Position numbers and translations under genes: made by a program. Source: a virus (Duplodnaviria; Heunggongvirae; Uroviricota; Caudoviricetes). Taken from it: DNA of 7,316 nucleotides. Positions 1-5,792 of this stretch are shown piece by piece. Under the pieces are notes generated by a model. The model was not told the origin of the DNA and did not search any database. It worked only from the letters and a program-made list of their open reading frames with translations. Position 1 is the stretch's first letter. Every line of letters starts with the position of its first letter. The stretch lies in IMG/VR virus record IMGVR_UViG_2684622618_000023; one strand, written 5' to 3'.

Positions 1-59
1 TTTGAACCAGCGACCTGGCGATTATGAGTCGCTCGCTCTCACCACTGAGCTAAAGGGCC
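1..59 (-). tRNA. tRNA with CAU anticodon (tRNA-Ile2/ileX-like, or elongator Met), 3' part truncated by the left window edge
   Basis: Reverse complement of 1-59 reads GGCCCTT-TA-GCTC-AGTGGTGA-GAGC-G-AGCGA-CTCATAA-TCGCC-AGGTC-GCTGG-TTCAAA: acceptor 5' strand, D arm, anticodon arm with loop CU-CAU-AA, variable loop, T-stem 5' strand and start of the T-loop, then the window ends. The anticodon arm and T-stem closely resemble E. coli tRNA-Ile2 (ileX type) as I remember it; identity cannot be fixed without the missing 3' acceptor strand. Confidence 0.8.
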
Positions 60-1531: not shown

Positions 1532-1950
1532 TTCTCAATCTCTCGATGGCGCAGTGCAGCAGATGCCAGTTGTTCAAGCTAGCACGCAAATTGTAAACCA
1601 GAATGCCAGGAAAAAACAAAACCCGCCGAAGCTGGTTGTGTGCGGTTGCGTTGAAGTCTCCTAGCCAAAGAGTAGCGGTGACCACTCCCCGCCGATAATC
1701 TTAGTTGTTTAATTTCGTAAGCTAACTAGGCTAAAAGCTCTCTGTTGTCTGCCTGTTGTACAATTAACAAAATGAACAACGAACTAGATATACCAACGCC
1801 AGAATGGTGCAACAAATCCCAAACAACACAGCAATGCAACAATAACATATGTTATTTTCCTCTCACGGGATTCAGTCCTGAATTCTCATAAAGCTAATCT
1901 TTTTTTAAAAACATACTGTTAGATCACATGCACTTTCTTTCTTAACATCG

Positions 1951-1978
1951 TTGACTTCGCATGCGAAGCGTTTAAAAT
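1951..1978 (+). promoter_or_regulatory. Candidate sigma70 promoter for the GHKL operon
   Basis: TTGACT at 1951-1956, 16-nt spacer, TAAAAT at 1973-1978; predicted start near 1985, about 45 nt upstream of ATG 2031; AT-rich upstream region. Pattern match only. Confidence 0.4.
1955..1968. promoter_or_regulatory. Perfect 14-bp palindrome CTTCGCATGCGAAG overlapping the -35/spacer of the candidate GHKL promoter (possible operator)
   Basis: cttcgcatgcgaag at 1955-1968 is identical to its reverse complement. The palindrome itself is certain; a regulatory role is inferred from its position. Confidence 0.5.
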
Positions 1979-2030
1979 CAACAATTTGCACTTAAGGTAT
2001 TTATTTTCCCAAACACATAGAGAGTAAATT

Positions 2031-3422
2031 ATGACTGAGAACACGACTCCAACAGCAGACTTTAGTCCTAGTAAAAGATTTTTTGTAAGTATGCTAACTC
2101 GAGATATCGACTTAAACGATGCCATACTTGATCTGCTTGATAACTGCGTCGATGGGGCTTTACGTACAATAAAAGACACAAAAAAAACTTCAAAACCATA
2201 TGAAGGATTTTATGCGAAACTTACGATTAATAAAGATGTCTTTATTATAGAAGACAATTGCGGAGGTATCCCTAAAAGCTTCCGAGAATATGCTTTTAAA
2301 ATGGGACGACCCCATCAAAAAGAAGAAGAAAATGAAGGCACCGTTGGCGTCTATGGTATTGGTATGAAAAGAGCCATTTTTAAAATGGGTAGAGATTGCT
2401 CAATACAATCGAATAATCCCGATGGCGCATTCACTGTAGATATAACACCTGATTGGATCGATGGTGATGGTTGGAAAATACCGATGCACGAGAGTGACTA
2501 TGATAACAAAAATCCAACAGGCACAACTATAGAGATAAAAAAACTCCATTCTAATGTGGCACAAAAATTTAATGAGAGCACATATCTTACTGATCTCTTT
2601 TTACAGATAAAACACTCATTGTCATTTATTATTCAAAAAGGATTTAAAATAGAATTAAATGGAGTTGTTGTTGAACATAATCCGATTAACATCATAACTG
2701 ATCATTCTAAAATAGAACCATACATATATAAAGCTAAAATAGACGATGTTGATATCGATTTAGTTGTTGGCTTCTATAAAAATTTAGAAGATGACAATGA
2801 TGATGTTTTAGAAAAAAGGAGTTCTGATGATGCTGGATGGACTGTCATTTGCAATGACCGCGTTGTTCTATATTGTGATAAGACACATCTCACAGGTTGG
2901 GGCTTTGCTAATGTACCAAGGTTTCATACCCAATTTATAGCAATTTCTGGGGTTGTTCGCTTTACCAGTAAAAACCCAGAAAAATTACCAATAACAACAA
3001 CGAAACGAGGTGTCGATCTTAGTTCTACATTGTACAATGATGTACGAAATAAAATGATTGAAGGGATGATGCATTTTATTCGATTCACCAATCAGTGGAA
3101 AGGTGAGCATCTTGAAGAAGGGAAAAAATTACTTAAGTCAGCTCAGTCACATGAAGCTCAATCTTTATTTGAAATTACCCCACAATCAACTCCAGAAGAT
3201 AAAAAAAATAACTGGTCCAACCCTAATAGAAACAAAAATGAGTGGCGATATACACCTAAGCTGCCTACCCCAGTAAAAAAAAGCTCTACTGTACGAATAA
3301 TCTTCACCAGAGAGAAAGAAGATGTTAAAATTTTATCTAAATATTTCTTTGGACATGAAGATGCTAGCGCTTCTGATGTGGGGATGCAATGCTTTGATAC
3401 GGTGATTGAAGAGGTGAAGTGA
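2031..3422 (+). CDS. GHKL-superfamily (Bergerat-fold, MORC/MutL-like HATPase_c) ATPase, 463 aa
   Basis: ATG 2031 with AGAGAG upstream. N-terminal motifs in the canonical order: N-box DLLDNCVDGA (nt about 2130-2159), G1 box IEDNCGG (D at 2253), G2 box GVYGIGMKRA (MORC-like GxYGxGxK), motif IV PTGTTIEI. The remaining ~260 aa are of unassigned function (possibly an S5-like transducer); no HNH, PD-(D/E)xK or PLD motif was evident by eye. Confidence 0.85.
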   Translation: MTENTTPTADFSPSKRFFVSMLTRDIDLNDAILDLLDNCVDGALRTIKDTKKTSKPYEGFYAKLTINKDVFIIEDNCGGIPKSFREYAFKMGRPHQKEEENEGTVGVYGIGMKRAIFKMGRDCSIQSNNPDGAFTVDITPDWIDGDGWKIPMHESDYDNKNPTGTTIEIKKLHSNVAQKFNESTYLTDLFLQIKHSLSFIIQKGFKIELNGVVVEHNPINIITDHSKIEPYIYKAKIDDVDIDLVVGFYKNLEDDNDDVLEKRSSDDAGWTVICNDRVVLYCDKTHLTGWGFANVPRFHTQFIAISGVVRFTSKNPEKLPITTTKRGVDLSSTLYNDVRNKMIEGMMHFIRFTNQWKGEHLEEGKKLLKSAQSHEAQSLFEITPQSTPEDKKNNWSNPNRNKNEWRYTPKLPTPVKKSSTVRIIFTREKEDVKILSKYFFGHEDASASDVGMQCFDTVIEEVK

Positions 3423-4411
3423 TGTCTGGACAATACATTCCCTATCACTTAAGGCATAATAAGTCTATTGATAGAGAGATTTTTCTCGAAAGCCTAAACC
3501 TCTTAAGCAAAAGACTAAATATTCAAGAATATACATATATAGGTTTTGGTGGTCCGATGCTTGAAGATTTTAGAATCATGCATAATCGTATCGCTCTTTC
3601 TGATATGATTTCTCTCGAAGAACAAGAGTCTACTCACATCAGACAAAAATATAATTTGCCTTATAATTGTATTGATTGTAAGCTAATATCAGCTCATGAC
3701 TTTATTCTTGATTATAGTTTTTCTAAACCATCAATAACATGGTTAGACTATGCCTCCCCGAAAAAAATACAAACGGATCTAGATGATATACACTTACTAA
3801 GTACTAAAGTAAGCTCTTTTGATATTTTGAAGGTCACCTTCCCCATAAATCCTAGTTCTTATTACCAACGTAGAGTTGGAGAAAGTTTAGATATTTTTAA
3901 AGAAGCTTTTATTAATTCATTAAAATCATTGCTTGGGAAAAAGTATCTTGATTTTAATCTTCAGATATCAAATGCAGATCTTTCAGATCGTAAGATTAAA
4001 GCTCTTTTAATACGAATTATTACAAACGCTTTTAGATCAGCAATAGAACGTGGTCTTTCAGGACGTAAGGATAAGATTCAGTATTACCCATTATCCTTAA
4101 ATCAATATAATGATGGCAGTCATACCATGTTGACAATATCAGGTTTTTTCTCCTCAGAACAAGAATATATAGAGTTATCTAAGGCATGCGACCTTTCTAA
4201 CTGGCAATTTTATTCAACAAATTGGGAAGACGTGCAAGAAATAGCAATACCAACACTAACAATTAAAGAAAAGATAAATTTAGATAGTAAACTGCCTGAT
4301 AAAGAAGCATATCAGGCAGCCGCTGAAGAGTTCTCTTTAAACGAAAATGAACGGGATAACTATTATAAATACTATAGGTTATACCCTAACTTCCAAAGAA
4401 TTATGGTTTAA
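3422..4411 (+). CDS. Hypothetical protein (~329 aa), co-operonic partner of the GHKL ATPase; no recognisable family
   Basis: ATG 3422-3424 shares its A with the TGA stop (3420-3422) of the GHKL gene; GAGG at 3411-3414 gives 7-nt spacing. The supplied ORF begins 3 nt earlier at GTG 3419, which has poorer spacing. Ends TAA 4409-4411. Same AT-rich composition and codon usage as the GHKL gene. No catalytic motif could be assigned with confidence; weak D-x-K candidates such as IDCK are not persuasive. Confidence 0.8.
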   Translation: MSGQYIPYHLRHNKSIDREIFLESLNLLSKRLNIQEYTYIGFGGPMLEDFRIMHNRIALSDMISLEEQESTHIRQKYNLPYNCIDCKLISAHDFILDYSFSKPSITWLDYASPKKIQTDLDDIHLLSTKVSSFDILKVTFPINPSSYYQRRVGESLDIFKEAFINSLKSLLGKKYLDFNLQISNADLSDRKIKALLIRIITNAFRSAIERGLSGRKDKIQYYPLSLNQYNDGSHTMLTISGFFSSEQEYIELSKACDLSNWQFYSTNWEDVQEIAIPTLTIKEKINLDSKLPDKEAYQAAAEEFSLNENERDNYYKYYRLYPNFQRIMV

Positions 4412-5530
4412 ATATTCGGGCTGTACTCTTTTATTTAATAAATTGTACAGCCCCTTTAATATATATTCAGCAACTATTGGTGACACGCTATTTCCTATTT
4501 GTCTGAAACTATGCCATTTAGTTACATGAAAGCGAAACCAATCAGGGAAGCCTTGTAATCTAGCAGCTTCTCTTGGTGTAATCACTCTTGGATGATAAGG
4601 GTGGATCGGCCTGACGGCTTGAAAGCTTCCTTTATCTCTAGCGGTTCCCGCCCTTAAAGTCGGGCAAAAACCATTTGGATCTAATCTTGTAGATCTTGAA
4701 ATTTTATCAGTTTCCCCAAAAGATAAGGAAGCATAACGCTCTTGGACGATTTTGCTATGTAATGTTCCGGTACATCCAGATATGATATTATTTTTTAACT
4801 TAGCGATCGATTCTGTATCACCAACATTCCGAGGGATCTGCCCCCATAATTTTTCATAAAATCCCCCTTTTCGATCTTTTTTAATTGTTCGCCAACTCTC
4901 AGAGTCTGATTGCCAATTGGCATCGATAATATCTGGTAATCCATACAAAGCATCTTTTACAGTAACCGGATCAATCATTTTAGGCATAAATACTTCATCT
5001 GAAATATCAAGCTTCAATGATTTTTTTACACCGATAAAAAAATATCTAGTTCGAATAGTTGGAGCACCATAATCAGATGCTTTTACCTTGATGGGATCAA
5101 GAATATCATAATCACCGCTAACCAAATTAAATGCTTTATTTCTAATGCCAGAATATTTCTCTTGCATAATACCTGGAACATTTTCTGCCAAAAAGAATAA
5201 TGGCTGTAATTCTGATACTAAACGGTAGAAATGCATGTAAAGCTGATTCCTGCTATCATCAGGATTCCCCTTGCCTATTGAACTAAATCCTTGGCACGGA
5301 GGACCGCCAATAATACCATCTATGGGCATATCGTTTTTAAAAAAACCCTTAATTATTTCTGCATTTAGTAAAGAAACATCTTCTTGGACGTGCAAACTTC
5401 TTGGAAAATTAATTGCGTGAGTATTAATAGCATGTTGATCAATTTCAACTGCCATTTTAACATCAAATCCAGCACGTGCAGCACCAAGACTTAGACCTCC
5501 AACGCCAGAAAACAAATCTATTACATTCAT
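4379..5530 (-). CDS. DNA (cytosine-5)-methyltransferase, Dcm/M.HhaI-type, 383 aa
   Basis: Canonical C5-MTase motifs in order: motif I DLFSGVGG at the N-terminus (AdoMet binding), motif IV GGPPCQGFS (catalytic Cys codon at 5294-5296), motif VI ENVPG, an RTRYF region (motif VIII-like), and C-terminal GNSVSP (motif X). Start ATG 5530-5528; stop TAA 4381-4379. Confidence 0.9.
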   Translation of the reverse strand: MNVIDLFSGVGGLSLGAARAGFDVKMAVEIDQHAINTHAINFPRSLHVQEDVSLLNAEIIKGFFKNDMPIDGIIGGPPCQGFSSIGKGNPDDSRNQLYMHFYRLVSELQPLFFLAENVPGIMQEKYSGIRNKAFNLVSGDYDILDPIKVKASDYGAPTIRTRYFFIGVKKSLKLDISDEVFMPKMIDPVTVKDALYGLPDIIDANWQSDSESWRTIKKDRKGGFYEKLWGQIPRNVGDTESIAKLKNNIISGCTGTLHSKIVQERYASLSFGETDKISRSTRLDPNGFCPTLRAGTARDKGSFQAVRPIHPYHPRVITPREAARLQGFPDWFRFHVTKWHSFRQIGNSVSPIVAEYILKGLYNLLNKRVQPEYLNHNSLEVRV

Positions 5531-5562
5531 ATAGTTGCAACGTCTCTTATTAGTTTCTATGT

Positions 5563-5571
5563 ATTATAACA
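5563..5571 (-). promoter_or_regulatory. Candidate extended -10 promoter (TGtTATAAT) for the methyltransferase gene
   Basis: Minus strand reads TGTTATAAT (plus 5563-5571). It lies about 33 nt upstream of ATG 5530 with TAAGAGA between as a weak ribosome-binding site. No good -35, which is acceptable for an extended -10. Pattern match only. Confidence 0.4.
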
Positions 5572-5792
5572 CAACTGTTCTTGATGTTTTAACCCCATAA
5601 GATAACCTCATAAAGGCTATCCCTTGAAAATACCGGATCGCATAAATTTAATCTTTCAAAACTACTTGTCTATTAATCGAGCAATTTAAGGTTGTTTTAG
5701 TCATGTCGATACCGACATAGTTAACTAAACCCATTTCATCGTCCAACAAATGGGGGTAATACACTTTGATTTATAGTCGGGTGGGTTTTTCT

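Follow-up and report, generated by a model that had tools for sequence, protein, structure and literature searches.

The window analyzed here is a 7,316-nucleotide (nt) stretch of viral DNA (IMG/VR record IMGVR_UViG_2684622618_000023; Caudoviricetes). It carries a three-gene cassette in which a gene for a GHKL ATPase and a gene for a second protein with a methyltransferase fold, here called the partner, face a gene for a DNA cytosine methyltransferase (MTase) on the opposite strand. The coding regions of the partner and the MTase overlap tail to tail by 33 bp. The results presented here indicate that this overlap is real and old, that it is probably a by-product of a compact cassette and not a regulatory device, and that a hairpin located just past the partner stop codon, within the MTase gene, most likely ends or stabilizes the GHKL-partner mRNA.

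Results

The convergent overlap

The open reading frame (ORF) list and the raw sequence place the stop codon of the partner gene (TAA, plus strand) at 4409-4411 and that of the MTase gene (TAA, minus strand) at 4381-4379 (Table 1). Ten sense codons and the stop of each gene lie in the shared 33 bp, and the frames are in register, with codon position 1 of one gene opposite position 3 of the other. At the upstream end of the partner gene, the GHKL stop (TGA, 3420-3422) and the partner start (ATG, 3422-3424) share one base; an alternative in-frame GTG start at 3419 is possible. An earlier interpretation of the window made without database searches (the sequence-only reading) had described the 33-bp overlap, the mutual antisense of the last 11 codons of each gene and the TGATG junction, and all three are confirmed. 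The same reading allowed that a sequencing or assembly error might have shifted the stop codons. Such an error was looked for and is ruled out, because the RefSeq coordinates of E. coli O157:H7 strains Sakai and EDL933 are the same as those of the window ORFs, and because, of 5426 complete E. coli genomes, 173 carry the 3.8 kb around the overlap at 100% identity, in every case chromosomally.

An improbable overlap length was considered as a signal in its own right and was rejected. In this register, antisense stops arise only from the partner codons TTA, CTA and TCA, which account for 9.1% of partner codons. Ten open codons are expected by chance with P ~0.38, and the length is therefore statistically unremarkable.

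Conservation of the overlap and selection on its two frames

Relatives of the cassette comprise 62 distant loci from species-representative genomes and 30 closer loci from assemblies, viral contigs and metagenomes (locus numbers in parentheses). The identical 33-bp overlap, in the same phase, is present in every fetched relative whose partner is 58-100% identical to that of the window. These relatives provide 12 distinct sequences, with partner identities that include 89, 85, 71, 68, 67, 63, 61 and 58%. The named hosts are Klebsiella aerogenes and Enterobacter asburiae, and the others are metagenomic and viral contigs. The setting of the 33-bp overlap varies, from lambdoid nin regions (L001, L093) to sites adjoining phage O/P and DinI genes (L065, L094), a site between Q and the lysis genes (L096), a chromosomal site adjoining purB and umuDC (L067), and other islands (L069, L095). 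Unlike its length, the conservation of the overlap is not due to chance.

Among distant convergent loci, the stop-to-stop distances are -50 (three loci), -47, -40 (two loci), -6, +1 (two loci), +9, +11, +28, +33, +58 and +86. The convergent junction is tight in all convergent loci, and the amount of overlap differs between clades. In a beta-proteobacterial metagenome-assembled genome (L026, 7646-7999), extension of a tblastn match shows no stop in the MTase frame over 354 nt antisense to the partner gene, which may reflect the loss of a stop codon or an assembly error.

The two frames of the overlap do not vary in the same manner. The partner C-terminal peptide LYPNFQR[IV][MI]V is invariant or conservatively substituted across the 33-bp clade, and nearly all nucleotide variation within the overlap falls at partner-synonymous positions. 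Read in the MTase frame, these changes are radical (R/G, E/K, S/P/A, N/D/Y, H/N and N/H/Y/D). Within the overlap, the partner frame is under purifying selection and the MTase frame is not. In every clade member examined, the MTase stop codon is the antisense of a partner leucine codon, either TTA or CTA.

The C-terminal tail of the MTase is an unconstrained, passive 3' extension of ~16-18 codons. Its residues are variable, the Pfam DNA_methylase domain (PF00145, E 2.6e-61) covers residues 1-361 of 383, and 28 residues follow SPIVAE in the window MTase, compared with 10-16 in non-overlapping homologs (L007, L008, L009, L029, L031, L032, L072 and L073). Both overlapping ORFs are real genes with homology extending to their 3' regions, as in pairs that arose by 3' extension. 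Extension of a 3' end is a common origin of convergent overlaps, and many of the long ones in databases derive from it (Pallejà et al. 2008, PMC2478687).

A hairpin past the partner stop codon

The sequence-only reading held that the overlap leaves no room for a terminator. This is contradicted by a covarying plus-strand hairpin, T(+), which starts 6 nt past the partner stop and is followed by a short U-rich run. Its arms are the inverted repeat 4418-4431/4440-4453, its folding energy (dG) is -17.2 kcal/mol (z -5.0 relative to shuffled sequences), and RNAalifold independently predicts the same 14-bp helix. In an alignment of 11 sequences, 90% of cells pair, compared with 24-52% when the opposing columns are slid. 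Compensatory double changes are found in 11 of the 14 pairs, and none of 500 shuffles reached the observed covariation. The inner stem differs among lineages with complementarity kept, and the outer stem, GCTG...CAGC, is nearly invariant. Given that G·U cells far outnumber A·C cells (18 versus 1) and that the plus strand folds more stably in 10 of the 11 sequences, T(+) is selected in plus-strand RNA, the GHKL-partner transcript, and not in the MTase mRNA or duplex DNA. A short pyrimidine- or U-rich run with 3-5 U within ~6-8 nt follows the hairpin in 10 of the 11 sequences, and none is found in L067.

T(+) was first noticed on visual inspection of the alignment and was tested afterwards. A consensus terminator scan called no site between the partner and MTase genes; it missed T(+) because only loops of 3-8 nt were allowed.

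Relatives in which a spacer separates the two genes have comparable structures within that spacer. In L073 (+28 nt) the spacer holds AAAAGCTCTC-aact-GAGAGCTTTT, a textbook A-tract, stem and T-tract, and in L072 (+58 nt) it holds a 13-bp stem. Over the 90 nt past the partner stop, the median z is -3.8 in convergent loci (21 of 28 below -2) and 0.0 in other arrangements (1 of 36 below -2). Unusually stable folding past the partner stop is specific to convergent loci. The most economical explanation is that the MTase reading frame expanded over a terminator that once lay between the two facing units.

A clade with overlaps of 40-50 bp (L012, L017, L074, L020 and L021) has a different strong hairpin, GGTAATAGC...GCTATTACC, located ~25-75 nt past the partner stop. 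It is formed by MTase codons for GNSVSP and EAMLLP, and its five sequences provide one compensatory pair (L020).

A weaker candidate hairpin, T(-), is tentatively assigned to the MTase transcript and starts 58 nt past the MTase stop. Its core is a perfect 10-bp repeat (4292-4301/4310-4319), within an RNAalifold helix of 13 pairs. Pairing is 89%, compared with 28-57% in slid controls, and there are 4 compensatory pairs. The strand bias is 20 G·U on the minus strand versus 4 cells that pair only on the plus strand. The arms of T(-) are constrained by protein coding, and its U-tract is poor.

Arrangement of the cassette in other loci

The GHKL gene is directly upstream of the partner gene in all loci save a few that are cut or frameshifted. 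The two genes overlap in 69 of 76 unique loci, by the 4 nt of ATGA in 47, by 1 nt in 20 and by 8 nt in 2. No other feature of the system is as well conserved as the translational coupling of the GHKL and partner genes. A C5 MTase gene is found within the fetched flanks of most loci, in a variable position. In other phyla it is co-directional and upstream, forming an MTase-GHKL-partner operon, in ~25 loci; it is co-directional and downstream in ~7 loci and divergent in one. Antisense coupling is therefore not a defining feature of the system. The sequence-only reading also argued that the three genes function as one unit, which is supported by their joint recurrence in lambdoid nin, post-Q, P2-like and island contexts and by homology shared over 1944-5592. 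The trio is a recurrent unit whose convergent layout is lineage-specific and is not a requirement.

Several loci depart from the standard set of genes. In L071 (6208-9195) and L097 (4274-6990), whose partners are 55-56% identical to that of the window, the MTase gene is not adjacent to the partner gene and is preceded on the same strand by a gene for a second HATPase_c_3 protein of 608 aa, such that two GHKL ATPases flank one MTase. Weak matches to a second GHKL protein adjoin the MTase in L008, L011, L014, L015, L019, L028 and L058. A C5 MTase gene is absent from the fetched flanks of the GHKL-partner pairs in L003, L005 and L006 (cyanobacteria), L030 and L053 (Parabeggiatoa), and L035 (Myxococcota). 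The cyanobacterial pair lies between genes for NADH dehydrogenase subunits, and the L035 pair lies between genes for SNF2-type helicases. In a Yersinia enterocolitica prophage (L072, 5990-7295), DNA with 67% identity to window positions 4429-5532 is homologous to the MTase gene and has no recorded gene; it may represent a pseudogene or a gene missed in annotation. This phage also carries a Mom-family gene.

The sites of insertion in phages are diverse. In P2-like prophages, the portal-replication interval has been reported as a hotspot for defense systems, and in Cronobacter (L074, 3589-7095) the cassette lies between the portal gene and replication gene A of such a prophage. In L096 (1592-5070) it lies between the Q antiterminator gene and the holin and lysozyme genes, with the MTase gene co-oriented with phage transcription. 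In nin-region and post-Q insertions the MTase gene always has this orientation, and the GHKL and partner genes are antisense to phage transcription.

The window itself is a match to the lambda-like prophage Sp10 of E. coli O157:H7 Sakai. The surrounding phage genes (cro, replication genes, nin-region genes for DUF1367 and DUF1364 proteins, and a gene for a Q-like antiterminator) are all on the minus strand of the window, so the MTase gene has the same orientation as the phage early operon, to which the GHKL and partner genes are opposed. A megablast search with the cassette against a phage collection gave no match to any deposited phage genome; the cassette is known only from prophage or island inserts. 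A run of 50 masked N (219-268) lies within the 3' part of the Q-like antiterminator ORF, where translations give X. An Rfam scan of the window gave no match except a partial tRNA at the window edge (1-59, minus strand; RF00005, 41.8 bits), which corresponds to the tRNA-Ile/tRNA-Arg pair that the Sp10 annotation places downstream of Q.

Table 1. Positions of the genes, overlaps, hairpins and promoter-like sites in the window
Feature	Position	Strand	Description
Mobile three-gene cassette	1944-5592		blastn homology to L065 (Klebsiella aerogenes) and L086 (viral contig) covers exactly this span
Promoter-like site, GHKL-partner operon	1951-1978	+	TTGACT, 16-nt spacer, TAAAAT
GHKL gene, ECs_1955 (RefSeq "ATP-binding protein")	2031-3422	+	463 aa, MORC-like GHKL ATPase
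GHKL stop/partner start overlap	3420-3424	+	TGATG, translational coupling signal
Partner gene, ECs_1954 (RefSeq "O-methyltransferase")	3422-4411	+	329 aa, Pfam PF20553 Methyltransf_35, class I S-adenosylmethionine (SAM)-methyltransferase fold
T(-), weaker candidate hairpin, MTase transcript	4291-4320	-	Inside partner codons KLPDKEAYQAA
Tail-to-tail overlap of partner and MTase coding regions	4379-4411	both	33 bp (ORF list, raw sequence, RefSeq)
Non-conserved MTase C-terminal extension	4379-4465	-	Carries the T(+) hairpin and the overlap
T(+), terminator-like hairpin, GHKL-partner transcript	4418-4453	+	Inside MTase codons G360-P371
MTase gene, ECs_1953 (RefSeq "DNA cytosine methyltransferase")	5530-4379	-	383 aa, Dcm-type C5 MTase
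Promoter-like site, MTase	5592-5563	-	TTAAAA, 18-nt spacer, TGtTATAAT (extended -10)

Cassette ends, promoter-like sites and expression

The cassette is AT-rich, with a GC content of 0.28-0.40 compared with 0.47-0.55 in the flanks (composition profile). Promoter-like sites that face inward are located at both ends. The site upstream of the GHKL gene scores 10/12, tied among three plus-strand sites and exceeded only by the TG-extended site upstream of the MTase gene. Both of its hexamers are invariant in L065 and L086, and the homology of the cassette begins at its -35. The MTase site is the best in the window (10/12 with TG), its extended -10 is kept in L065 and L086, and the homology stops at its -35. 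The hexamers are conserved while the remaining upstream sequence is not. The total of promoter-like sites across the window is at chance level, as is the number of internal sites (21 versus 18.5 expected), so the argument for the end sites as promoters is positional. On their position they may be the functional promoters of the cassette.

In a published microarray time course of strain Sakai (PMC2241611, Table 2), ECs1954 (log2 -2.61) and ECs1955 (log2 -3.22) fall at the transition to stationary phase, and ECs1953 is absent from the table. These values would fit a GHKL-partner operon with expression in exponentially growing lysogens and with regulation separate from that of the MTase gene.

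The three proteins

The MTase matches NCBIfam dcm and PADLOC MTase_II (E 2e-98). It is full-length, matches the whole Pfam profile and is 65-83% identical across the clade. The GHKL protein matches HATPase_c_3 (E 2.9e-9), with the motif residues of DxxDNxxDG and GxxGxGxK invariant in the alignment. An S5-fold transducer domain follows the GHKL domain, and the closest structural matches are the ATPase modules of MORC3, MORC2 and SMCHD1. The partner matches PF20553 above the curated cut-off (residues 2-329 of 330) and has a Rossmann-like methyltransferase fold, with a conserved G-loop-like FGGPxLEDF and an acidic E66. The nearest folds of the partner are nucleic-acid base N- and C-methyltransferases, and the "O-" of its RefSeq label is therefore unsupported. 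Profile searches of solved structures gave only marginal matches (partner to HMG-CoA synthase, E 0.04; GHKL protein to MORC3, E 0.04), and fold comparison was relied on for this reason.

Neither the GHKL protein nor the partner has a hit in PADLOC-DB v2.0.0, and NCBIfam gave nothing useful for either. A full-text literature search for PF20553 or Methyltransf_35 returned no papers. Literature on GHKL or MORC proteins in connection with defense or methyltransferases covers related themes and not this system, and no experimental work on the trio was found. No restriction endonuclease or other nuclease gene is recognizable in the cassette, which does not constitute a classical Type II restriction-modification (R-M) system.

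Discussion

The overlap and the hairpin can be accommodated in a single scheme. One inward-facing promoter would drive the GHKL and partner genes and the opposite one would drive the MTase gene, with the two units meeting tail to tail. The MTase frame overruns the stop of its homologs by ~16-18 codons, passing through a terminator-like hairpin that is intergenic in relatives with a spacer and into the last ten codons of the partner gene. Selection acts on the C-terminal peptide of the partner and on the hairpin in the GHKL-partner RNA, leaving the tail peptide of the MTase free. It seems most likely that T(+) and its U-rich run would end or stabilize the GHKL-partner mRNA at a point a few dozen bases inside the MTase gene. 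Overlap between the two mRNAs would then be limited to their 3' ends, at ~75 nt, or ~180 nt if T(-) is also used. Translation of the MTase tail presumably protects the MTase transcript from termination at the same hairpin sequence. In lambdoid contexts it might be speculated that antiterminated phage transcription crosses the partner and GHKL genes in the antisense direction during lytic growth.

Some observations weigh against this scheme. The U-run after T(+) is short and partly dictated by MTase codons for AEYIL, so termination may be weak, or the hairpin may serve only to protect the 3' end. The covariation comes from 11 sequences that represent ~9 lineages of a single clade. The exact retention of the MTase stop, as antisense TTA or CTA across the clade members examined, could imply that the end-point itself is selected. 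Finally, antisense read-through across the partner and GHKL genes is likely in lytic growth, because an N-antiterminated early transcript would ignore minus-strand terminators, and such read-through would amount to a form of the antisense regulation proposed earlier.

That earlier proposal, in which the overlap forces mutual read-through and antisense RNA or polymerase collision sets the ratio of MTase to effector, is not established and is considered unlikely, even though several features are in its favor. The promoter-like sites face each other across the cassette, the convergent stop-to-stop distance is always tight (-50 to +86), and the orientation of the genes relative to phage transcription is constant in nin and post-Q insertions. 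The two mRNAs must also be complementary over at least their 3' ends, for at least 75 nt, and some antisense interaction between them is possible. However, the conserved plus-strand hairpin directly past the partner stop is at odds with forced read-through. The system evidently works without convergence, given that the MTase gene is co-directional in ~30 loci, divergent in one and absent from some. In addition, the MTase codons in the overlap are unconstrained and the overlap length is within chance.

A different role for the repeat at 4418-4453, as a DNA operator, as an MTase target or as a structure acting in the MTase mRNA, is much less probable. The near invariance of the outer stem and the location of the repeat within the MTase ORF are compatible with it. 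The 18 G·U cells versus 1 A·C cell are not, because G·U pairs become mismatches on the minus strand or in duplex DNA, and T(+) was rejected as a DNA palindrome or MTase-mRNA element on this asymmetry. The inner stem keeps its complementarity and not its sequence, which argues against a site for a sequence-specific protein, and the cassette is without a regulator gene. It is least credible that the overlap is an annotation or assembly artifact, or that the MTase is a decaying gene with a drifted stop: long convergent overlaps in databases are often 3'-end extensions (PMC2478687) and the MTase tail is not conserved, but the stop codons are independent of gene callers, 173 complete genomes are identical, and the MTase is full-length, 65-83% identical across the clade, and keeps its stop through a TTA-to-CTA change.

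The most likely role of the cassette is that of an R-M-like defense or addiction module of the MORC/paraMORC-plus-Dcm kind, given the Dcm linkage, the MORC-like ATPase and the variable accessory-gene positions in prophages. A more elaborate possibility, which is doubtful, is an immunity or epigenetic module in which the ATPase and an active second methyltransferase-fold protein act on DNA that the MTase has marked or left unmarked, with the layout serving as a switch between lysogeny and lysis. In the lysogen, terminators embedded in coding sequence would insulate both units. On induction, antiterminated early or late transcription would read the MTase gene, methylate the progeny DNA and shut off the effector by antisense.

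Taken alone, the overlap is an ordinary case of convergent gene compaction. With the hairpin, it provides a clean natural case in which compensatory substitutions within the coding tail of one gene preserve an RNA hairpin of the opposing transcript. The absence of intergenic space need not mean the absence of a terminator, and the same explanation accounts for the long and variable C-terminal tail of the MTase. The analysis also delimits a compact, widespread and experimentally uncharacterized cassette that consists of a MORC-like GHKL ATPase, a PF20553 partner and a Dcm-type MTase. It occupies variable accessory positions in prophages of O157:H7 and other enterobacteria, namely in the nin region of lambdoid prophages, between Q and the lysis genes, and in the portal-replication interval of a P2-like prophage. 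The cassette is a reasonable candidate for defense screening and may offer a bacterial entry to MORC-type ATPases that work with cytosine methylation.

Bidirectional terminators are said to be pervasive, as Ju and colleagues reportedly described in 2019. The present case is like such terminators, and like the overlapping 3' transcription of the excludon concept (PMC7154746), in that a stable hairpin is located where two convergent units meet, with a short U-run after it and, in L093 and L073, an A-run before it. It differs in that the hairpin of this clade lies inside a coding region and has a G·U pattern that shows selection on one strand only. Conserved convergent pairs formed by 3' extension, as attributed to Rogozin et al. 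2002 in the account given in PMC2478687, are alike in that a gene overruns its ancestral stop into its neighbor, one frame is under purifying selection and the other is free, and the overlap is kept across species. They differ in that the extension seen here crosses a structured RNA element of the opposite transcript and that the pair belongs to a mobile three-gene cassette.

The sequence-only reading also compared the overlap to regulation in R-M pairs, and the likeness is confined to a mobile methyltransferase module in which opposing transcription could tune expression. EcoRI and Eco29kI are co-directional operons, with the restriction gene first, in which reverse promoters inside the restriction gene exert antisense control on its 5' part and its Shine-Dalgarno sequence (PMC12707154). 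The cassette, in contrast, has no paired endonuclease gene, its opposing units are whole genes, and transcription from the MTase unit would meet the partner gene at its 3' end, where the overlap lies.

The cassette fits a general class that was predicted earlier, that of the MORC and paraMORC ATPases in R-M neighborhoods with cytosine methylases (Iyer, Abhiman, Aravind 2008, PMC2292703). The cassette shares with them the GHKL domain with an S5-like transducer, the link to a Dcm-type methylase and a patchy distribution on mobile elements. It differs from these neighborhoods in that the obligatory partner in the cassette is a PF20553 protein and not a helicase, Vsr, HNH or restriction-endonuclease-fold nuclease.

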